Positions 1 through 43,982 of a stretch of 48,836 nucleotides of DNA are shown here, in pieces. A program made the position numbers and the translations under genes. Source of the DNA: Escherichia phage T1. The notes beneath the pieces were generated by a model. The model was not told the DNA's origin. It saw nothing but the letters and a program-made list of their open reading frames with translations, and did no database searches. Location of the stretch: sequence record NC_005833.1. One strand, written 5' to 3'. Numbering within the stretch: the stretch's first letter is position 1; every line of letters begins with the position of its first letter.

Positions 1-104
1 GTTGCATGGTGTGCAACTGTTGATGTGATTGTTGCTTAGAATGCAATGATTGTGAGAGGGGGGATCTAGTGTTACCAGGTTCGCCTGGTAGTCATCTCCA
101 TTTT

Positions 105-120
105 TAGCAAAAAGTGCTAT
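105..120 (-). promoter_or_regulatory. box copy near left end, reverse orientation, lacking a -10-like hexamer
   Basis: Plus strand TAGCAAAAAGTGCTAT; adjacent hairpin CCAGG ttcg CCTGG at 75-88. Confidence 0.35.
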
Positions 121-207
121 CGATTACGATTACGCTTGATTGCGTGTTAATCATTGTATATGATTTGCCTAAATCGCAATCGTATACAAAATTACGCCAA
201 ATTACGC

Positions 208-290
208 CTTATAATATACATATAGATATATGTATATATATAATATATAAGTGTTTTTTTTATTTATATATATAGATACTATTATTTGTA
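208..290. repeat. alternating AT-rich (TATATA-type) tract
   Basis: ataatatacatatagatatatgtatatatataatatataagtgttttttttatttatatatatagatac; a similar tract recurs at 30001-30070. Confidence 0.6.
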
Positions 291-396
291 ATATGGTTGT
301 ATAGCGTGTCTTTTATGTTAATCGTTGGATGCTCTGATTATGATGCTCATGTTTATATATACAGTAGTTTTATCGGCGCATATTTATTTAGGGAAA

Positions 397-423
397 TCGA
401 TTAACACGATTAACACGATTAAC
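397..423. repeat. tandem 9-bp iteron (CGATTAACA x3)
   Basis: cgattaacacgattaacacgattaacc read directly in the left intergenic region. Confidence 0.7.
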
Positions 424-538
424 CACACTTAAAATCGCCCCGCAGACCTTGACACATGCGGGTCGTCGTGTAACACTACGATTAGAGACACGGTGTTACA
501 TGTTAATCATGGTGTATATTGAAACTAAGGAGAAAGCT

Positions 539-1114
539 ATGAGTTCTTACCAGTCAGACGCAGTACAGGCAGCAATCAAGGCAGCTTACGAGAAGGCCGG
601 AGTAACGGTTGAGCAGCGACCGGAGGCAAAAGTGACCGATGTTATCCGGGCCGCCTGCGATCAGCTTTATGGTGATGGCGAGAATACCGAGTTCACATTC
701 GACGCGAATAAGATGGCTGAGGCCGCAGCAAGAAAGTCGATGCCAGACGCTGACGAACATGATGTTGCCAAAGGCGCCGAGTCCTGGTTGCTCGGGAAGA
801 CGGATGAGATTAACGAGAAGTTTAAATCCTCATTCATCACCCCGATCGTTTCTCGACACTTCTCCAAGATCGGCAAGTCGGTCAAGGTGAGCGTGACCAT
901 GAACGATGAGAAGTTGCGAGTCGTTACTATCTCAGTGAGTGACGAAGAAGTTCCGGTGAAGAAGCGCCGCAGCCGGAAAAAAGTCAGCCTGGCTGATTGT
1001 CTGGATTCGTTTGTTCCTGATGTTGATGATCTTGAGAAAGGCGACGTTACTGTAAGCACCGTGCGCGACCTGGTTCGCCAGATGAAAGCGCATATCGAAA
1101 AATGTGGACTGTAA
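539..1114 (+). CDS. hypothetical early protein, first gene of rightward early operon
   Basis: Track ORF 449..1114; start refined to ATG 539 preceded by AAGGAG; basic KKRRSRKK patch; no recognisable domain. Confidence 0.5.
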   Translation: MSSYQSDAVQAAIKAAYEKAGVTVEQRPEAKVTDVIRAACDQLYGDGENTEFTFDANKMAEAAARKSMPDADEHDVAKGAESWLLGKTDEINEKFKSSFITPIVSRHFSKIGKSVKVSVTMNDEKLRVVTISVSDEEVPVKKRRSRKKVSLADCLDSFVPDVDDLEKGDVTVSTVRDLVRQMKAHIEKCGL

Positions 1115-1126
1115 GGAGAAGTAATT

Positions 1127-1453
1127 ATGTTTAATATCAAACCATTAACAGAAGCAGAGAAACAGGCTCAGGCCAAGCAAACCGAAAACATCCAAGTGAT
1201 CGCTGATGCGCTGATTGGTAAGAGGTCAATCAAAATAAACCTCGACACTGTTGGTCAGTCATTTTTTACTAAAGGTTTGGATAAGTACGTTATAAATGTG
1301 AAGGCGAGAGACCTGGTGGCGAGAATTCAAAAGCTAAACAATCAAAAGCTAAAGCTCATCAAGGTCGAAGGCAACATGTGCGAAATTGAGAACCTCAGCG
1401 CACCAGACCCGAATAAGTGGGAAATCACCGATGTCGAGTTTATCGTAGAATAG
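1127..1453 (+). CDS. hypothetical protein (108 aa)
   Basis: Track ORF with GGAG RBS; stop TAG lies inside conserved box at 1450. Confidence 0.5.
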   Translation: MFNIKPLTEAEKQAQAKQTENIQVIADALIGKRSIKINLDTVGQSFFTKGLDKYVINVKARDLVARIQKLNNQKLKLIKVEGNMCEIENLSAPDPNKWEITDVEFIVE

Positions 1454-1499
1454 CACTTTTTGTTAAAACCGGATCGGGGTATCTTGCTATAGTTACCCC
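1450..1499 (+). promoter_or_regulatory. conserved box-hairpin element (ATAGCACTTTTTGTTAAAAC, 22 nt, TATAGT)
   Basis: Box 1450-1469; TTGTTA 1460-1465; 22-nt spacer; TATAGT 1488-1493; inverted repeat GGGGTA 1476-1481 / TACCCC 1494-1499. Confidence 0.6.
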
Positions 1500-1531
1500 A
1501 TCAAAACGAGATACCAATCAGAGGAATCACC

Positions 1532-1762
1532 ATGTCAATCGTCAAGAACCAGCAAGCCATCGATTCAACCAATAACAACCGCTTTGCTATTTTCATCACT
1601 CGCGACAACAAGCGCTTTGCAGTAAAGGCCGTACCAGGTGGATACAAAACCTACATGGAAGATAACGGAAAGTGGGTGCGGTGCGACAACCTCGCAAACT
1701 TCTTGGTCTGGAACGCAGACCTGCAGGGATTCGATGACATCAGCACTTTAATTGAGGAGTAA
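1532..1762 (+). CDS. hypothetical protein (76 aa)
   Basis: Track ORF downstream of box-hairpin element 1450-1499; RBS GAGG. Confidence 0.5.
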   Translation: MSIVKNQQAIDSTNNNRFAIFITRDNKRFAVKAVPGGYKTYMEDNGKWVRCDNLANFLVWNADLQGFDDISTLIEE

Positions 1763-1767
1763 TAATC

Positions 1768-1995
1768 ATGCCACGTTACAGCAACCTAACTCAACTAACC
1801 CGCGTCAACGGGCACATGATCCCGGCAAAATCCACTCACTACGCAATGGGAGCAAAGCACGGATTGTATTTCAAATGGCGCGGTCAATGGAACTTCACGG
1901 TTATTCGTAATTTCTACATTAGAGTTACAGGTGATGACCCGCAATCGGTCGTAGAGAACTCAATCGGCGACAACAAGATCGAGGTGCTGAAATGA
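1768..1995 (+). CDS. hypothetical protein (75 aa)
   Basis: Track ORF, tightly packed after preceding gene. Confidence 0.5.
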   Translation: MPRYSNLTQLTRVNGHMIPAKSTHYAMGAKHGLYFKWRGQWNFTVIRNFYIRVTGDDPQSVVENSIGDNKIEVLK

Positions 1996-2102
1996 ACTTC
2001 AACATAATTGCTTTCTGGTCTGCCGTATGGTTCTTTTGCGTAGGTCATGTTGTGGTTGGAATCGTAATCATGTTGCTACTGTGTGCGGGAGCGTTCGAAT
2101 GA
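1992..2102 (+). CDS. small hydrophobic protein (36 aa, single predicted TM helix)
   Basis: Manual translation MNFNIIAFWSAVWFFCVGHVVVGIVIMLLLCAGAFE; ATG overlaps upstream stop (ATGA); below 60 aa so absent from track. Confidence 0.3.
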   Translation: MNFNIIAFWSAVWFFCVGHVVVGIVIMLLLCAGAFE

Positions 2103-2272
2103 TGCGGATTCTGATTTGCATGATGGCGGCGGTCGCCATGGCTATCCTGGTAGTGTCCGGCTGCGGCGAGGCCAGGGATAGCTGTCATGAAACCGGGAGC
2201 CAGGTTACTACTTTCGTGATGGTTGGCAACGTATTGCTACCAATAACATCAAATGAAATCACTTGCGAATAG
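2099..2272 (+). CDS. small putative lipoprotein (about 57 aa)
   Basis: Inside track ORF 2027..2272; start refined to ATG 2099 overlapping preceding stop; signal-like MMRILICMMAAVAMAILVVSGC with lipobox-like VVSGC. Confidence 0.4.
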   Translation: MMRILICMMAAVAMAILVVSGCGEARDSCHETGSQVTTFVMVGNVLLPITSNEITCE

Positions 2273-2319
2273 CACTTTTTGTTAAAACTCAACTCCGGGG
2301 TTGCGATATAGTAACCCCA
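2269..2319 (+). promoter_or_regulatory. conserved box-hairpin element
   Basis: ATAGCAC 2269-2275; TTGTTA 2279-2284; 22-nt spacer; TATAGT 2307-2312; GGGGTT / AACCCC arms. Confidence 0.6.
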
Positions 2320-2343
2320 TCGACAACGAACGAGGACGCAAAC

Positions 2344-2832
2344 ATGAAAATTAAATTACTTAGCAATGGCGGTTACAAGGGATTCACCCGCGACCTGGAA
2401 GCTGACCCTATCGTGGTTGACGCGGTTAAGTGCGACTCAAGTACTGGAGGCTACCGCGTTAAGGTTGATGACCTTGTAAAAGCTGGCGTGTACGATCTTG
2501 ATTATGGCCTGTCGGTTAGCCCGGTATTTGGCCCAGCTGACTTCAACGAGAAAGACGGAACGATGTTCTTTTTTGATTGGGAAGTGAAGGCAAACATCAA
2601 GCCGCGCAAGGTTCGTCTTCTCAGCAATGGCGGCTACCCGATGCGACCAGGTTATGAGAATCGCACGTTCCCGGTTATCGTTGACTTCATTGGGACAACT
2701 GACAACTTGGTATACGTTAGCCATGAGCAACTTAAGGCAGTTGGATTCGTTGGCGGTATGAATAAAGAAGCGCTTTGCTTCTTCCATCGATGTCCAGAGC
2801 CGATCGGTATTGAGTGCGAGTTAGTATACTAA
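2344..2832 (+). CDS. hypothetical protein with internal duplication (two LLSNGGY-containing halves)
   Basis: Track ORF 2263..2832; start refined to ATG 2344; repeated KIKLLSNGGYKGF / KVRLLSNGGYPMR segments. Confidence 0.5.
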   Translation: MKIKLLSNGGYKGFTRDLEADPIVVDAVKCDSSTGGYRVKVDDLVKAGVYDLDYGLSVSPVFGPADFNEKDGTMFFFDWEVKANIKPRKVRLLSNGGYPMRPGYENRTFPVIVDFIGTTDNLVYVSHEQLKAVGFVGGMNKEALCFFHRCPEPIGIECELVY

Positions 2833-2879
2833 GCACGAATTGTTAAAAGGGGATTTGGCCTGACTGGTATAATCCCCAC
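2829..2879 (+). promoter_or_regulatory. conserved box-hairpin element
   Basis: cTAAGCACGAATTGTTAAAAG; TTGTTA 2840-2845; 22-nt spacer; TATAAT 2868-2873 (TGG-TATAAT); GGGGATT / AATCCCC arms. Confidence 0.6.
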
Positions 2880-2903
2880 ATCAACCACTAATAGGAAAGC
2901 ATC

Positions 2904-3389
2904 ATGTTAAAATTAAAAGATATTCAGTTCCCTGTAGTATTTAACACTATTAGCTGCGGTAAAATAACCTGCCACAGCAAAGATCGCGCAACAGATTCAT
3001 CATTCAATGAGTGCCACCCGTCTATTGTTGGTAATCTTATTGAGCTTCATAACAATCACAATCCTGATAACATCCCATCTCTTCCATATTATGTTGAGGG
3101 AGTCGGGCCTGGTTGGAAGGTTGGTCGCTCCATCTTCCATGCAGCAAAGCCAGAAATCAAGCCAGCGCTACAATGCACTCAGATCGAGAACATGCCATTG
3201 AGCGCGACACTAAAAGGTGTCCAACTTGATAGCGAATCCTGGATCGAGATTACCGCCACGCCTAAAACTATTGAGGTACATGATGATGTGGTGATTCTCC
3301 TGTTGCATTACGGCAGCTTTAAGCACAAGACGGTATCAGGTGAAATCAGCATTAAGCGCGGAACTCTTGTCCGCTACGAGGTGAAATAA
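2904..3389 (+). CDS. hypothetical protein (161 aa)
   Basis: Track ORF after box-hairpin element 2829-2879. Confidence 0.5.
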   Translation: MLKLKDIQFPVVFNTISCGKITCHSKDRATDSSFNECHPSIVGNLIELHNNHNPDNIPSLPYYVEGVGPGWKVGRSIFHAAKPEIKPALQCTQIENMPLSATLKGVQLDSESWIEITATPKTIEVHDDVVILLLHYGSFKHKTVSGEISIKRGTLVRYEVK

Positions 3390-3538
3390 TGACTGCATGG
3401 GTCTTGATTATCTTGATGAGCAAAGGTCCGGATCACGTATACATGGAAAGTCAACAATCATGCAACAAGGCACGGGAAGTTATCGCAGAGAACAAGCCGT
3501 TCGGATATGAAGTAAAAACTATGTGCGTTAAACGATAG
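3389..3538 (+). CDS. small hypothetical protein (49 aa)
   Basis: Manual translation; ATG overlaps upstream TAA (TAATG); stop TAG inside box at 3535. Confidence 0.3.
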   Translation: MTAWVLIILMSKGPDHVYMESQQSCNKAREVIAENKPFGYEVKTMCVKR

Positions 3539-3586
3539 CACGAATTGCTAAACCTTCCGCAAGGCCATTTGATATAGTGGCCTTAT
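3535..3586 (+). promoter_or_regulatory. conserved box-hairpin element
   Basis: ATAGCACGAATTGCTAAAC; TTGCTA 3545-3550; 22-nt spacer; TATAGT 3573-3578; AAGGCCA / TGGCCTT arms. Confidence 0.6.
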
Positions 3587-3618
3587 TGAAGCACGACAAC
3601 CAACTGGAGGTAAAATTT

Positions 3619-3993
3619 ATGAAATTCGAATGTATCAGCGATAACACCAAAAAATTTACTGTTGGCAAAATTTACGATGTTCCGACTGAGCACGCAGAGC
3701 AAACCGTAGCTCTGACCGACGACACGGGCCGCAACCGAATTGCAACCGTAACTCACAACGGTGAAGGTCTTCGCTGGAATAGCGGCGGCACTAAGTTCGC
3801 AACGTTCGGCAAGAAGCGCAAGCGCACCTTCCGCGTCAACGGCAATGTTGCAGCTAACAAGATCCATAACGTCAAGCCGTCGGAAGTTGACCGCAAGCCA
3901 GCGCTGAAGTTTAAAGAGAAGGTGGATTTATTCAATCTTGCCGCCTCGCTTGTTCTCCTGGTCGCTGCTATTTCGCTGCTTTCCATCATGTAA
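3619..3993 (+). CDS. hypothetical protein with C-terminal transmembrane anchor
   Basis: Track ORF 3577..3993; start refined to ATG 3619 after GGAGG; C-terminal LFNLAASLVLLVAAISLLSIM hydrophobic helix. Confidence 0.45.
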   Translation: MKFECISDNTKKFTVGKIYDVPTEHAEQTVALTDDTGRNRIATVTHNGEGLRWNSGGTKFATFGKKRKRTFRVNGNVAANKIHNVKPSEVDRKPALKFKEKVDLFNLAASLVLLVAAISLLSIM

Positions 3994-4000
3994 TGCTAAT

Positions 4001-4035
4001 GGGGAATCGACTCTGAACGGTTCCCCTTTCTTTTG
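4001..4035 (+). terminator. rho-independent terminator
   Basis: GGGGAA(t)CG .. CG(g)TTCCCC stem followed by TTTCTTTTGG. Confidence 0.5.
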
Positions 4036-4141
4036 GAGAAAACACTATGCCAGACTTTTCTAACTGGAATAACGAGCCGCCATCATTTCAGGAGTTGCTA
4101 TTCTGCCTCCTGGTCCTGACATTATCTCTTAAGGGTGTTTT

Positions 4142-4360
4142 ATGGCTACTATCATGACAGTAGAAGATGCAGCACGCGATGCAGTGGAAGGAATGCGCCC
4201 AAATACCTCCAGAATAGCACACTACTACAAATCTGAGGTGTCGGCAGTGCAATTGGTCCACGAAATTTTAAGGCTCCCACAAGTCGATTCAGCGCGCGTT
4301 GTGACGTGCTTAAAAAATTATTTTTGCATCACTATTAAAACGAATAGCACGAATTGCTAA
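4142..4360 (+). CDS. hypothetical protein (72 aa); a competing 36-aa ORF at 4047..4157 has the better RBS
   Basis: Track ORF; weak RBS; overlaps small ORF 4047..4157. Confidence 0.25.
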   Translation: MATIMTVEDAARDAVEGMRPNTSRIAHYYKSEVSAVQLVHEILRLPQVDSARVVTCLKNYFCITIKTNSTNC

Positions 4361-4395
4361 AACCTATCAAGGGGAATACGCTATGATTCCCCTAC
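4344..4395 (+). promoter_or_regulatory. conserved box-hairpin element
   Basis: ATAGCACGAATTGCTAAAAC; TTGCTA 4354-4359; 22-nt spacer; TATGAT 4382-4387; AGGGGAAT / ATTCCCCT arms. Confidence 0.6.
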
Positions 4396-4417
4396 ACCAA
4401 CAAACGAGGAAGCGATC

Positions 4418-4864
4418 ATGAAACACTTAATCTGCATTGAAGCGCCTAACGATCAATACACCCTGCATGGACTTGGTGTGTTCAAAGGTCACTACATTAC
4501 CGCAGGAACTTACGATGCTCGTCGCGGCGATGGCGACCTAATGATTACGTCAAAAGAAGTAAATCCGTACATCATGCAGAATCTTGGCAATAACGAATAT
4601 ATGGCCTATGGCTGCAACGCGGTGTACAAGCACGTTAAGATCCGCAAGCGTGTTGTGCGTGCATTCAAGAAGATTGCAATTAAATACTGGAAAATGAGCA
4701 AGAAAGATGCCGGACGTTGGGCGCGCAACGTTGCAGATTCATACTTCTATCGTAACGGCGAATCCTGCTACTTCCTGATCGATGAACTTATGGAAAACTA
4801 CGGTGGCGACTTCAGCCAGGGTAGCTTTGATGACTGGGCCAACTATGAGATCAGTTGCTGGTAA
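4418..4864 (+). CDS. hypothetical protein (148 aa)
   Basis: Track ORF after box-hairpin element 4344-4395; RBS GAGGAAG; double stop TAATAG. Confidence 0.5.
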   Translation: MKHLICIEAPNDQYTLHGLGVFKGHYITAGTYDARRGDGDLMITSKEVNPYIMQNLGNNEYMAYGCNAVYKHVKIRKRVVRAFKKIAIKYWKMSKKDAGRWARNVADSYFYRNGESCYFLIDELMENYGGDFSQGSFDDWANYEISCW

Positions 4865-4917
4865 TAGCACGAATTGCTAAAACTTGCTCAAGGGCATTTG
4901 TTAGAATGCCCTTCGTT
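4864..4917 (+). promoter_or_regulatory. conserved box-hairpin element
   Basis: ATAGCACGAATTGCTAAAAC; TTGCTA 4874-4879; 22-nt spacer; TAGAAT 4902-4907; AAGGGCAT / ATGCCCTT arms. Confidence 0.6.
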
Positions 4918-4947
4918 GAGTTAAGCAACCAATCAGAGGAATAAATC

Positions 4948-5478
4948 ATGGATAAAATCACAATTTGGGGCCAGACAATCAACCTGTTTCTCGGCACGCG
5001 CCGAGTGGCAATCTTTGACTTTGACGGGACACTTAGCGATGGATCTGGTCGACTTCACCTGCTGCCAACAAAGGATTTGCACTTGACTGAAAGCTGGTCT
5101 GAGTTTAACCGAGCGGCAATATTTGATAACCCAATCCAGAGCACGATCGATGTGATGAACTCTATGTTTGCCGCTGGGTATCATGTGATCATTTTAACCG
5201 GGCGAAGTGATGAGGTGCGTTACGCATCTGAGTTATGGCTTAAGCATCACGGCGCTCGATATGATTACTTAGTCATGCGACCGCATACCGACAACCGCAA
5301 AGACACGGTAATGAAAGAAGAGGCAGTGCGCGCTATCGGCATTGATAACATTCTTGCGGCTTGGGATGACTCAGTGAATATAATAAAAAAATTCAGAGAT
5401 CTAGGGATAACCACATATCAGGTTTGTGAATATGCCTGTGATAGTCGAGAGGATTTAAATAGTCATGGTGTCGATTGA
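4948..5478 (+). CDS. HAD-superfamily phosphatase (nucleotidase or polynucleotide 3'-phosphatase-like)
   Basis: HAD motif I FDFDGTL, motif II ILTGR, downstream K and WDDS; RBS GAGGAA. Confidence 0.6.
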   Translation: MDKITIWGQTINLFLGTRRVAIFDFDGTLSDGSGRLHLLPTKDLHLTESWSEFNRAAIFDNPIQSTIDVMNSMFAAGYHVIILTGRSDEVRYASELWLKHHGARYDYLVMRPHTDNRKDTVMKEEAVRAIGIDNILAAWDDSVNIIKKFRDLGITTYQVCEYACDSREDLNSHGVD

Positions 5479-5959
5479 TAACAAATCAATGGTAAGAGAG
5501 TTATTTACTTATTCTGACGGCGTTCTGTATTGGAAGGCCAAATCATCTAAATACAGTAGAGCTAAAATAGGAGGCGCGGCAGGAAGCAAGGATAAAGACG
5601 GATACATAATAATCAGAGTAAGAAACGAAACTAGAGGCGCTCACAGGCTTGTATGGATATACCATAATGGCAAGATACCTGATGGAATGGAGGTAGACCA
5701 TATGGATGGAGACATAACAAACAATAGAATAGAAAACCTAAGATTGGTAACGAGAACCATAAATAACAGGAATCAAAAAAAGAGATCTGATAACACAACC
5801 GGAGTATCCGGTGTAACTTTCATGAAAGATAGAGGAAAGTATAGGGCGCAAGTTAGAAACAAGAGACTCGGGCAGTTCGACACAATAGAAGAGGCCGCCA
5901 AAGCAGTAAAGGATGAGCGGGATAGATTAGGTTTATTCACAAAAAGACACGGGGTGTAA
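5465..5959 (+). CDS. HNH homing endonuclease with AP2-like DNA-binding domain
   Basis: YHNGKIPDGMEVDHMDGDITNNRIENL HNH core plus TGVSGV..KYRAQV AP2-like segment; AGA/ATA-rich codon usage unlike neighbours. Confidence 0.75.
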   Translation: MVSIDNKSMVRELFTYSDGVLYWKAKSSKYSRAKIGGAAGSKDKDGYIIIRVRNETRGAHRLVWIYHNGKIPDGMEVDHMDGDITNNRIENLRLVTRTINNRNQKKRSDNTTGVSGVTFMKDRGKYRAQVRNKRLGQFDTIEEAAKAVKDERDRLGLFTKRHGV

Positions 5960-5961
5960 AC

Positions 5962-6534
5962 ATGAAAACAGCTATCATTTTAAACGGCGCACCTGGTGCG
6001 GGAAAGGACACTATCGGATGCATCCTGGCTGACACTTACGATCATGTAGCGCTACGCAGCTTCAAAGCGCCAATGTTTGAGATTGCCCGAGCAATCCTGG
6101 GTGAGACTAATTTCGAGTATTTCATGTTCTTGTATGAGGACCGTCGCTATAAAGAAGAGCCAGCGTCAATCCTGAACGGTAAAAGCCCGCGCCAGTTTAT
6201 GATCTGGATTAGCGAGGAGGTCATCAAGCCGCAGTTCGGAAATCGCTTCTTCGGTATGCGAGCGGAAAGTAAGGTGAAAGAGTCGCATTCACTTTCGGTA
6301 TTTACTGACGGTGGATTCAAAGACGAGATCTTGCAGATGATTGAAGGTGACATCCAGGTCAAGCTGTGTCGAATCCATCGCAACGGTTGCAACTTTGACA
6401 ACGACAGTCGCGACTATATCTATCTTGACGATATGATCGGGGTCAACGGTTATCAGGAGTGTGACTTCTTTTCTGTCGAAGGCCATCCAGAAATTACCGC
6501 TCAGCACATAGCCGCCACGTTCATCAATAAATAG
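5962..6534 (+). CDS. P-loop nucleotide/polynucleotide kinase
   Basis: Walker A GAPGAGKDT near N-terminus (GKDT as in dNMP kinases); about 190 aa. Confidence 0.6.
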   Translation: MKTAIILNGAPGAGKDTIGCILADTYDHVALRSFKAPMFEIARAILGETNFEYFMFLYEDRRYKEEPASILNGKSPRQFMIWISEEVIKPQFGNRFFGMRAESKVKESHSLSVFTDGGFKDEILQMIEGDIQVKLCRIHRNGCNFDNDSRDYIYLDDMIGVNGYQECDFFSVEGHPEITAQHIAATFINK

Positions 6535-6582
6535 CACGAATTGCTAAAACGTCGGTGTGGTGATTTGATATAGTTACCTCAT
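6531..6582 (+). promoter_or_regulatory. conserved box-hairpin element
   Basis: ATAGCACGAATTGCTAAAAC 6531-6550; 22-nt spacer; TATAGT 6569-6574. Confidence 0.6.
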
Positions 6583-6606
6583 CGACAACGAAGAGAGAAA
6601 ATCGAA

Positions 6607-6816
6607 ATGATGGTATCAACTGATAAGTTTTTCACTTGCACCAAAACTTCTGAGGTATTCGAGCTGGTTCATACTGACAACGGTGATTTCATGCATGACG
6701 GTTGCGACGCTTTCATTGAAGTGAAAGAAAGCGACTATGACGACGGAGTTTATTACAACCCTGCGGTTAACACGCAGTTTTTTACCCCGATCGAAGAGGA
6801 AGGAGAAGAGGCATGA
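6607..6816 (+). CDS. hypothetical protein (69 aa), acidic C-terminus
   Basis: Track ORF after box-hairpin element 6531-6582. Confidence 0.45.
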   Translation: MMVSTDKFFTCTKTSEVFELVHTDNGDFMHDGCDAFIEVKESDYDDGVYYNPAVNTQFFTPIEEEGEEA

Positions 6817-7157
6817 TCACGATTAACCTGTCAGATAAACAAGCGCGTGAAATACTAGACACTATCGGAGAACAGCTTCACGTAAAAGGCGATACCGCTG
6901 AGATTCTTAACCAGATCGAAAGACAGCTAACCCCTGTGTCGACGAATCAAGCTGAGTTCGCAGCATGGAAAAGCGAACGCATCCTGCCAAATATCATCAA
7001 GGCATGGAAGCGCAAGCATAAAAAAGAAATCAACGTTGAGGATTTATTTACCGATGAATTAAGTCCTTCAAATGTTGCTCAATACCAGTTGCGATACATG
7101 GAGTCGGTTTGCAATCAGGTTTTAGGTGTAAGTTTTTCATTCAAAGGTGATAAATAA
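6813..7157 (+). CDS. hypothetical protein (114 aa)
   Basis: Track ORF; ATGA overlap with upstream gene. Confidence 0.45.
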   Translation: MITINLSDKQAREILDTIGEQLHVKGDTAEILNQIERQLTPVSTNQAEFAAWKSERILPNIIKAWKRKHKKEINVEDLFTDELSPSNVAQYQLRYMESVCNQVLGVSFSFKGDK

Positions 7158-29601: not shown

Positions 29602-29624
29602 GCCCCTTGCGGGGCTTTTATTTT
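29601..29624. terminator. bidirectional terminator between convergent genes
   Basis: AGCCCC ttgc GGGGCT flanked by T-run (plus) and A-run (minus). Confidence 0.6.
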
Positions 29625-29850
29625 ATATCGAGCAATCGTGAGATTTGAAGTTTTTCTCTGATACATAGTTGAAGGAGAATGGGTATCCAGCACGCAATAC
29701 CATCTCCTTTCCGCGCATCTTAGATCCAAAAACGTAAACCGAGTACTCCGCGCCGCCTGATTCATAAATTGCCGTGCAAGTGCGCTCAGGCATCGATGAG
29801 CAACCAGTCAGGATGAATGCCGCAGCGATAATGGTGATTAACTTTTTCAT
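29623..29850 (-). CDS. small outer-membrane-type lipoprotein (Cor/Llp-like superinfection exclusion candidate)
   Basis: 75 aa; signal peptide with lipobox LTGC (MKKLITIIAAAFILTGCSS); lone reverse-strand gene after tail module. Confidence 0.5.
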   Translation of the reverse strand: MKKLITIIAAAFILTGCSSMPERTCTAIYESGGAEYSVYVFGSKMRGKEMVLRAGYPFSFNYVSEKNFKSHDCSI

Positions 29851-43093: not shown

Positions 43094-43581
43094 TGAGTTT
43101 AAAAAATAACGTTATAGGCGCATCAATCGGGGCCGCTTTGACGTTGACACCTACCCTACTGGAACGGATCGAAGGTATAGAATACGAGGTTTATTACGAT
43201 ATCGCCGGAGTCCCTACCGTATGCAGCGGAATAACCGGGCCTGACGTCATACCTGGTAAGAAATACACTAAGCGAGAATGCGATGCATTGCTGATAAAAC
43301 ATATCGGCGTCGCTCAGCGATACGTTGACAAGAAGGTTAAGGTTGACATTCCGGTAACTATGCGCGCATCACTGTATAGCTTCACTTTCAACGTTGGGAC
43401 TGGCGCTTTCGGATCGTCTACAATGCTTAAGCTAATCAATCAGCGCAAGCACAAAGAAGCGTGTAATCAGTTATGGCGATGGGTATACTACTACAACCCA
43501 AAAACCAAAAAGCGCGAAGTGTCGAGAGGGATCAAGAATCGGCGCGCTGAAGAATACGCATATTGCGTTAAGGAACTATAA
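43093..43581 (+). CDS. endolysin, GH24-type lysozyme with N-terminal SAR-like signal-anchor
   Basis: E-D-T catalytic pattern ..[26 protein letters not shown]..; N-terminal weakly hydrophobic [19 protein letters not shown]. Confidence 0.8.
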
Positions 43582-43982
43582 TGAAACTTAAGAAAACGTG
43601 CATTGCAATTACGGTTGCTGTTGGTGTGATTTCTCTATCCGGTTGTTCGACGGCATCTGCTCTGAGTGGTTTACTTTCTGACTCCCCGGATGTTACGGCG
43701 CAGGTTGGCGCTGAGAACACAAAACAACTAGCAGGAGTAACAGCAAAGGCGGATGATAAGCGAGAAGTGAAGGTGAGTGATTCAAATATTGGCAAGATTG
43801 ACTCATCCGTCAAGAAGTCCGTGGAGGTGTCAACCATTCAGGCCAACACGGTTAACGCTGAAAGCATCACAGTAACCAAATCTGGAAGCTGGTACGATCC
43901 TGTGGTTTGCTGGATTCTCGTTTTTATTGTCCTGTTGCTGTTTTATTTTTTAATTCGTAAGCACGAAAAAAAGGAGGCGTAA
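43581..43982 (+). CDS. unimolecular spanin (u-spanin)
   Basis: N-terminal lipoprotein signal with lipobox LSGC plus C-terminal TM helix CWILVFIVLLLFYFLI; last gene of lysis cassette. Confidence 0.7.
   Translation: MKLKKTCIAITVAVGVISLSGCSTASALSGLLSDSPDVTAQVGAENTKQLAGVTAKADDKREVKVSDSNIGKIDSSVKKSVEVSTIQANTVNAESITVTKSGSWYDPVVCWILVFIVLLLFYFLIRKHEKKEA

Follow-up and report, generated by a model that had tools for sequence, protein, structure and literature searches.

Two short genes that follow gene 74 in Escherichia phage T1 (NC_005833.1; our window is this whole stretch of DNA, 48,836 nucleotides long) are, on the strength of their sequence evolution, almost certainly real and co-translated. Considered as a whole, the evidence is best explained by their products, gp73 and gp72, being an accessory, co-translated pair made up of a membrane peptide and an outer-membrane hairpin lipopeptide that would work on the envelope, a reading that we put forward tentatively and to which we give somewhat less than an even chance. 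As a finding, the pair is ordinary and already known, in that two long-annotated hypothetical genes have been re-identified.

The initial annotation had presented both open reading frames (ORFs), here called B and C, as unannotated, which proved to be mistaken: they have been catalogued since 2004, and an exact look-up returns the T1 proteins ST73 and ST72. ORF B is AAP49927.1 / YP_003871.1 ('hypothetical protein ST73 [Escherichia phage T1]', CPTT1_005), and ORF C is AAP49928.1 / YP_003872.1 ('ST72', CPTT1_006); the UniRef/UniProt name of the latter is 'Lipoprotein', and the prediction that it is membrane-targeted thus already stands in UniProt. The notes of the SA32RD record independently put YP_003872 at the position of ORF C. 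As for related genomes, the annotation of MN153797 omits B and begins C late, at 2120, that of SH2 omits B, and that of AV106 includes both. The full-length matches of B to phrog_25570 (E = 3.1e-26, residues 1-36 of 36) and of C to phrog_8628 (E = 7e-29, residues 1-57, profile positions 6-65 of 66) make the two ORFs members of these families, and since both families are labelled 'unknown function', membership gives no mechanism. A literature search returned no publication on ST72 and nothing on either protein.

A chained gene unit in the left-end cluster of T1

Over positions 1500-2800, T1 matches Tunavirus T1 isolate 22 (MN153797) at 99.9% identity, and about 60 further Tunavirus genomes, of Escherichia and Shigella phages, match it at 82-88%. 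ORFs B and C come last in a unit of four genes, gp75-gp74-gp73-gp72, which has repeat and hairpin elements at both of its ends and sits in the left-end cluster of small same-strand ORFs, with two sigma-70-like promoter matches upstream of the unit at 136-244. Judged by position alone, B and C would be expressed early. The unit contains the following features.

1449..1511, plus strand: upstream boundary element, made up of the 21-nt Drexlerviridae repeat (AATAGCACTTTTTGTTAAAAC) and, after it, a hairpin, GGGGTA..TACCCC, enclosing a -10-like TATAGT
1532..1762, plus strand: gp75 (T1p75), the first gene of the unit, 76 aa, phrog_11449, labelled function unknown
1768..1995, plus strand: gene A, or gp74, 75 aa, Pfam DUF7274 (E = 7e-41)
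1981..1986, plus strand: Shine-Dalgarno-like GAGGTG, 5 nt 5' of the start codon of ORF B
1992..2102, plus strand: ORF B, or gp73, ATG at 1992 and TGA at 2100-2102, 36 aa, MNFNIIAFWSAVWFFCVGHVVVGIVIMLLLCAGAFE
2087..2091, plus strand: Shine-Dalgarno-like GGGAG, 7 nt 5' of the start of ORF C, within the final codons of ORF B
2099..2272, plus strand: ORF C, or gp72, predicted lipoprotein precursor, ATG at 2099 and TAG at 2270-2272, 57 aa, MMRILICMMAAVAMAILVVSGCGEARDSCHETGSQVTTFVMVGNVLLPITSNEITCE
2268..2330, plus strand: downstream boundary element, in which the 21-nt repeat, including the TAG stop of ORF C, is followed by a hairpin, GGGGTT..AACCCC, around TATAGT

ORFs B and C lie exactly where the initial annotation had placed them, in coordinates and in sequence, and the ATGA chaining that it described recurs in related loci. 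The TGA stop of gene A (1993-1995) overlaps the start of ORF B as ATGA, and the ATG of ORF C at 2099 overlaps the TGA of ORF B (2100-2102) in the same way; the A/B junction is kept in 22 of 22 fetched loci and the B/C junction in 21 of 22, the one exception, L005, being without ORF C altogether. Both starts have a Shine-Dalgarno sequence of their own, and the GAGGT of the site that precedes ORF B is present in all 22 loci. Ribosomes that end on gp74 would restart at B via the ATGA overlap, and likewise those that end on B at C, and because of these restarts and the separate Shine-Dalgarno sites, gp74, gp73 and gp72 are expected to be made together. The AlphaFold2 model of gene A is confident (pLDDT 89), and a fold search with it gave no informative match.

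The distribution of ORF B was compiled from tblastn of phage records, an exact-sequence cluster look-up and the fetched loci. By tblastn, ORF B is found in 53 phage records and ORF C in 52, all of them Tunavirus and nearly all full-length. Nei-Gojobori dN/dS values for the annotated frames, calculated on a gap-free alignment of 17 distinct sequences, are 0.187 for A, 0.078 for B and 0.161 for C, as against about 0.86-3.9 for the two alternative frames; one of the 17, L019 (ISF001), shows odd substitutions and was treated with caution, and L015 (vB_SsoS_008), with its many apparent frameshifts, was left out of all analyses. Third codon positions make up 22 of the 38 variable columns in B and 37 of the 67 in C. 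The terminal codons of ORF B (C-A-G-A-F-E) vary solely at synonymous third positions (GCG/GCT/GCA/GCC, GGA/GGG/GGT), which indicates that the B peptide and the purine-rich ribosome-binding site of C are both retained. Frame-specific dN/dS, conserved overlaps and full-length relatives together bear out the proposal that B and C are genuine, translationally chained small genes. Moreover, since ORF B has the most constrained amino-acid sequence of the three coupled genes, it appears to be more than a coupling device.

Predicted products of the two genes

The description of gp73 as a single-TM peptide is upheld by its sequence, which has one hydrophobic span with its best 19-residue window at residues 14-32 (summed Hessa dG -1.75 kcal/mol, mean Kyte-Doolittle 2.7) and contains no basic residue. 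Among 12 distinct versions of the peptide, 18 of the 36 residues never change, W9, W13-F14-F15, G18-H19 and LC.GAFE at the C-terminus being among them. The protein is very probably membrane-integral, to judge from these features, and would enter the inner membrane as a single helix, the span of which would contain the conserved H19 and aromatic residues. Scans of B with Pfam, NCBIfam, PADLOC and PHROG found no holin, type I toxin or other functional family.

The invariant G18-H19 in the middle of the span and the aromatic cluster, together with the stronger constraint on B than on the other two coupled genes (dN/dS 0.078) and the fact that either ORF can occur on its own (B in L005, C in L021), would suit a rival account, according to which gp73 is a viroporin- or toxin-like inner-membrane peptide that acts in early depolarisation or host shut-off, the role of gp72 being unrelated. 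We regard this as quite unlikely, given that B has no similarity to a holin, a type I toxin or any other family and that it has neither a charged tail nor flanking basic residues.

Two features were assigned within ORF C.

2099..2164, plus strand: predicted signal peptide II and lipobox of C, residues 1-21 (n-region R3, h-region I4-V19), lipobox V19-S20-G21-C22
2183..2266, plus strand: predicted beta-hairpin of mature C, residues 29-56, turn G43-N44, between the conserved Cys29 and Cys56

The lipobox that had been proposed for C (VVSGC) satisfies a PROSITE-type lipoprotein rule, with the cysteine at residue 22 (codon 2162-2164). The rule was our own regular-expression version of the PS51257-type rule of PROSITE, its terms being a basic residue in the first 7 residues, an uncharged hydrophobic core, and [LVI][ASTVI][GAS]C with the Cys at 15-35. 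It is passed by 16 of 20 full-length copies of ORF C; Cys22 is retained in most homologues, distant ones included, and R3, present in T1, is shared by at least 90% of homologues. In the whole of T1, only three ORFs have a credible lipobox, namely C, a 133-aa ORF at 43581..43982 and the gene for the lipoprotein Cor. Since residue +2 of gp72 is Gly, an outer-membrane location is predicted under the +2 rule of Lol sorting. We consider it highly likely from the sequence that gp72 is exported, and likely that it is lipidated in T1; it would then be sorted to the outer membrane.

AlphaFold2 modelling of C, using a 20-sequence alignment, returned a helix at residues 2-19, a poorly defined linker and two strands, 29-42 and 45-56, with moderate confidence (mean pLDDT 69; linker residues 24-27 below 50; the tip block 41-50 reaching 82). 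Cys56, G43, P48 and I49 are invariant in the family and Cys29 is nearly so; for G43, P48 and I49 this extends to homologues with as little as 35-41% identity. Residues 39-49 (FVMVGNVLLPI) make the tip of the modelled hairpin hydrophobic on both faces, and its base is polar. Because Cys29 and Cys56 are positioned at the open end of the hairpin in this model, we infer that they probably form a disulfide in the periplasm.

Comparisons of C with known proteins gave little beyond its signal peptide. Scans of Pfam, NCBIfam and PADLOC returned only weak lipoprotein signal-peptide matches (LptM, LpoB, BamD and LppK, with E of at least 0.02), Foldseek of the model against the PDB gave a best E of 2.9, and an HMM search of PDB sequences gave a single chance match, to NusG (E = 1.3). 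Across PHROG, Pfam, NCBIfam, PADLOC and the PDB, no similarity was found to defence-system proteins, holins, type I toxins or solved structures.

Two further candidate explanations for the hairpin were tried and rejected. An internal paralogue, or mimicry of a T1 virion protein, was dismissed because tblastn of mature C against the T1 genome gave chance-level matches only. Mimicry of the TonB box, the motif of which is [DE]-T-[ILMV]-[TV]-V, by a hairpin strand was dismissed on inspection of the alignments, in which the motif is absent; T1 reads E-T-G-S-Q and V-T-T-F-V, and the homologue P0049 alone has a partial TonB-box-like match, E-T-V-S-Y.

Family distribution, variants and boundary elements

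The ORF C family hardly extends beyond Tunavirus: in word-indexed and in exhaustive HMM searches, which covered billions of proteins, all relatives were Tunavirus-like except for a few distant ones. The five distant homologues (P0054, P0055, P0056, P0059 and P0060), at 35-41% identity, are small and each has a lipobox of its own, with LTVTGC, LAAC and LAGC among the versions seen. The core T-Y-V-M-x-G-K/N-V/M-x-V/I-P-I is common to all five, and the cysteine pair is also present in P0054, P0055, P0056 and P0059. They come from phage-like gene arrays of uncultured phages; P0056 is found on a 91-kb contig, within a long array of small overlapping ORFs without Pfam matches, and P0054, on a contig of 64% GC, is chained through a GTGA overlap. 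Among the cultured phages of the phage collection, there were no distant ORF C forms and no relatives of the 91-kb contig.

Within the Tunavirus-like set, two diverged forms (P0049 and P0057) carry Tyr at the site of the lipobox Cys and retain the hydrophobic leader, both hairpin cysteines and the VMVG..LLPIT core. P0049 lies in L021, which lacks B and has C directly after gene A; P0057 lies in L027, where B is present. The idea that a lipobox in C and the presence of B are linked was rejected, L027 having B and a C without a lipobox. Other variants of the lipobox region are Asp at +2 in IME18, for which inner-membrane retention is predicted, C22F in DELF2, and Val at -1 in L003. The Tyr of P0049 and P0057, the Val at -1 and the Asp at +2 indicate that lipidation and outer-membrane placement are not essential to the family, and these variants, combined with the conserved leader and hairpin, suggest that export and the hairpin are constant features and that the lipid anchor is usual, not obligatory.

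In a rival account, the lipid anchor is incidental, with the active form of gp72 being a periplasmic hairpin peptide, either tethered to the inner membrane or released, and outer-membrane sorting being irrelevant. The forms in which Tyr replaces Cys while leader, cysteines and core are kept (P0049, P0057) speak for this, as do the substitutions in IME18 and DELF2, but the passing of the lipobox rule by most full-length copies and the occurrence of a lipobox in all of the most distant homologues argue that lipidation is ancestral and selected, and we therefore hold an incidental anchor to be unlikely.

The gene for gp72 has also been lost or broken repeatedly. L005 has a precise deletion of ORF C that fuses the last sense codon of B (GAA) to the downstream repeat (TTCGAA/TAGCAC), EF3-1 has a frameshift in ORF C, and P0050-52 are truncated forms; in P0058, found on contigs of about 50 kb, a deletion has produced an in-frame fusion of C to the C-terminal part of the homologue of 3619..3993. 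These deletions and frameshifts, and the loss of the lipobox Cys, show that the gene is dispensable, and accessory rather than needed for lytic growth, which fits an accessory envelope role.

Such natural knock-outs of ORF C could also mean that B and C are functionless passengers in a recombination-prone cassette region, or that B is a mere coupling device for C, as could the gain and loss of cassettes at repeats in this region (T1 and L028 lack ORF D, and L005 lacks both C and D). We consider this extremely unlikely in view of the strong frame-specific purifying selection on both peptides, which is strongest on B, and of the conservation of residues down to 35-41% identity in unrelated phages.

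The repeats themselves are of separate interest. The 21-nt repeat aaATAGCACnnnTTGnTAAAA has 23 matches in T1, as compared with 0.46 expected by chance, and most of these copies are followed, at a distance of about 8-12 nt, by an inverted repeat of 4-10 bp that surrounds or adjoins a -10-like box (TATAGT, TATAAT, TATTAT or TATGAT). The stems vary among the paralogous T1 copies, and the orthologous copy 3' of C/D shows a compensatory change of G:C to T:A, from GGGGTT..AACCCC to GTGGTT..AACCAC, in L014, L017, L019 and L020. The hairpin that partners most of the 21-nt repeats, as read from these sequences, is one with a covarying stem, found in this analysis. The cassette gains and losses that separate T1, L028 and L005 from the other loci fall exactly at the repeat elements. 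An Rfam scan of T1 positions 1-7000 gave no match at E up to 1. The 21-nt Drexlerviridae repeat has been described in phage TLS, where its function was posed as an open question (PMC11447400). PeSL (promoter-early stem-loop) cassettes of T4-type phages (PMC2839356, PMC4122927) resemble the T1 unit in that promoter-like motifs with stem-loops flank it and that cassettes are gained and lost there, but the T1 element has a different motif sequence (ATAGCACnnnTTGnTAAA) and a distance of 22 nt, not 17, from TTGnTA to the -10-like box, and any promoter or terminator role that it has is putative. A repeat with a covarying hairpin that marks the points of cassette gain and loss may be more useful than the finding of B and C itself.

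Proposed function and comparison with known systems

In the reading that we prefer, an accessory pair on the envelope, gp72 would be exported by the Sec pathway, would receive its lipid at Cys22 and be processed by signal peptidase II, and would be taken by the Lol pathway to the inner leaflet of the outer membrane. Once mature, it would be a 36-residue lipopeptide with a beta-hairpin body of about 28 residues, a hydrophobic tip and, probably, the Cys29-Cys56 disulfide. This hairpin would bind a conserved, periplasm-facing envelope component, to the benefit of the infected cell or of the phage in competition, for example by blocking incoming phages post-adsorption or by protecting the envelope; it would not work by blocking the receptor FhuA, which is the job of Cor. 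The accessory status of the gene, its place in a small-ORF cluster behind the sigma-70-like matches and its receptor independence fit a role in competition or protection, and a part in superinfection exclusion, as the initial annotation had suggested, or in envelope competition is possible, if rather less probable than not.

There is also a slim chance that gp72 represents a new class of envelope effector, a lipid-tethered, disulfide-stapled hairpin of about 28 residues that would act by strand addition onto a periplasm-exposed host machine, with gp73 as its partner or as a viroporin-like element. Candidates for the docking machine would be TonB, the Lpt bridge, Bam or Lol components, or the siphophage DNA-entry channel, all of which we name with strong reservation. 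If true, this would amount to a Tunavirus system of receptor-independent exclusion or envelope remodelling, distinct from Cor. Confirmation of a function would give T1 a second, receptor-independent envelope effector beside Cor, and two PHROG families would gain a role. The exclusion and envelope genes of T1-like phages matter for cocktail design, because these phages often contaminate laboratories and are candidates for therapeutic use.

The known T1 lipoprotein closest in kind is Cor (ORF30), which has 75 aa and is encoded at 29623..29850 on the minus strand, next to tail genes. Its counterpart Llp, of T5 and BF23, depends on a disulfide. Cor is an FhuA-blocking lipoprotein (PMC5238451, PMC13164509), and a structure of FhuA with Llp is available (8A60; PMC13164509). 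Like gp72, Cor (of phi80, N15 and T1) and Llp are small phage lipoproteins with a signal peptide II, a predicted outer-membrane location and accessory status, but mature gp72 has 36 aa, as against about 60 for theirs, and PHROG and Pfam scans found no sequence or profile similarity between them, C giving only phrog_8628. In tblastn of mature C against the T1 genome, the Cor gene included, there was only a chance-level stretch at 29659-29757 (E = 23). The two also differ in distribution and surroundings: Cor occurs in 192 records from many genera, of which only 8 are Shigella phages, tracks the use of FhuA and neighbours tail genes, whereas C has about 52 records, all Tunavirus and 21 of them from Shigella phages, and belongs to the left-end small-ORF cluster. 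The separate location and distribution of Cor argue that C is not a second receptor-blocking copy, and we rejected C as an exclusion lipoprotein of the Cor/Llp type for its lack of homology, its lack of linkage to a tail or receptor module and its different distribution.

A second comparison is with spanins. The unimolecular spanin of T1 is gp11, and we take the 133-aa ORF at 43581..43982 to be the unimolecular spanin. Two-component Rz/Rz1 spanins resemble B and C in being encoded by overlapping genes and in pairing an inner-membrane protein with a small outer-membrane lipoprotein. However, the inner-membrane subunit of Rz/Rz1 has a periplasmic coiled-coil, whereas B, at 36 aa, is almost all hydrophobic span and is without such a domain; the mature Rz1-type lipoprotein is proline-rich, whereas mature C has one proline; and spanin genes lie in a lysis cassette, whereas B and C lie outside any. 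The pair was on these grounds (no coiled-coil domain, no lysis cassette, not proline-rich) rejected as a two-component spanin. The loose resemblance, and a weak match of C to an Rz-like spanin PHROG (E = 0.12) that covers the signal peptide only, leave the related proposal that gp73 and gp72 modulate lysis or envelope stability, by holding the spanin or pinholin in check or by guarding against lysis from without, and have no part in exclusion. We judge it very unlikely, since the putative spanin ORF is about 41 kb away, B has no periplasmic domain, and mature C, with its single proline, has no spanin-like sequence.

The third comparison is with small envelope proteins that block DNA entry or the tail lysozyme post-adsorption, such as Imm and Sp of T4, gp15 of HK97 and Ltp of TP-J34. 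No homology of gp72 or gp73 to Imm, Sp, gp15 or Ltp was found in Pfam, PHROGs or the PDB. These proteins are nonetheless like gp72 and gp73 in being small membrane or periplasmic proteins that are made by the resident phage and are dispensable for its growth, and by this analogy post-adsorption blocking, as in the class of Imm/Sp, HK97 gp15 and Ltp, is the class of mechanism that we consider most likely for gp72 and gp73.

Start codon of the lipoprotein gene and quality of the sample

In the T1 record MN153797, the start of the lipoprotein gene (ST72, 2099-2272) is placed at the internal Met8 (2120-2272), which strips the basic n-region from the signal peptide. The ATG at 2099 is the start kept by every relative, even where the sequence is ATGATT. 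At 90% identity, the 57-aa lipoprotein falls in a cluster whose representative is a 75-aa DUF7274 protein, the family of the gene at 1768..1995, and most members of the cluster are proteins of that kind; this looks like a clustering artefact of the protein collection. Two related loci, L015 (MK335533, vB_SsoS_008) and L019 (MG049919, ISF001), have, in all genes of the region, numerous seeming frameshifts or unusual substitutions of a non-conservative kind, anomalies that look like sequencing or assembly errors and not biology. L015 was excluded from every analysis, and L019 was retained in the dN/dS set and treated with caution.

Small genes of the left-end cluster and a natural fusion

The gene downstream of the lipoprotein gene (2344-2832; 162 aa, phrog_9595) encodes a product whose halves, KIKLLSNGGYKGF and KVRLLSNGGYPMR, are homologous to each other; phrog_13367 matches it twice, and the DNA is repeated as well, at 2359 and 2620. 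MN153797 labels the gene 'Radical SAM superfamily', for which this analysis gave no Pfam support. More small proteins with hydrophobic ends are encoded in the same cluster, at 3389-3538 and 3619-3993, and include the following:

a 49-aa product with the N-terminus MTAWVLIILMS
a product with a LAASLVLLVAAISLLSIM tail at its C-terminus

The left-end region appears rich in ORFs for membrane-directed products.

In P0058, a homologue of the lipoprotein found on contigs of about 50 kb, the stretch equivalent to 2099-2210 is fused to a region homologous to 3760-3993. A natural deletion that removed about 1.5 kb of small genes has brought the lipoprotein's signal peptide, with the first strand of its hairpin, into frame with the tail-anchored C-terminal portion of the 3619..3993 product.

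The 21-nt repeat and cassette gain and loss

The 21-nt Drexlerviridae repeat, ATAGCACnnnTTGnTAAA, is already known, and its function was posed as an open question (PMC11447400). It occurs at 23 sites genome-wide, among them:

1449-1511
2268-2330
3534-3582
4343-4391
4863-4911
6530-6592

Most T1 copies have a short hairpin 3' of the repeat, whose stems vary in sequence from copy to copy and which encloses or adjoins a -10-like TATAGT/TATAAT box. In one orthologous copy, a G:C pair of the stem is replaced by T:A in L014, L017, L019 and L020, a compensatory change. The -10-like box lies 22 nt from TTGnTA, a gap that exceeds standard sigma-70 promoter spacing.

Relatives carry an additional 63-aa ORF (MADFMHQMIAVFKGSDD...) between the lipoprotein gene and the repeat; it is missing from T1 and L028, and L005 lacks both genes. 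The sites of its presence or absence are:

T1, 2270-2275
L002, 2283-2474
L005, about 2829
L028, 742

Because the junctions at which the 63-aa ORF or the lipoprotein gene is absent fall precisely at GAA-TAG of the repeat, the 21-nt repeats look like recombination breakpoints of gene cassettes. They would in this respect resemble the PeSL (promoter-early stem-loop) elements of T4-type phages.
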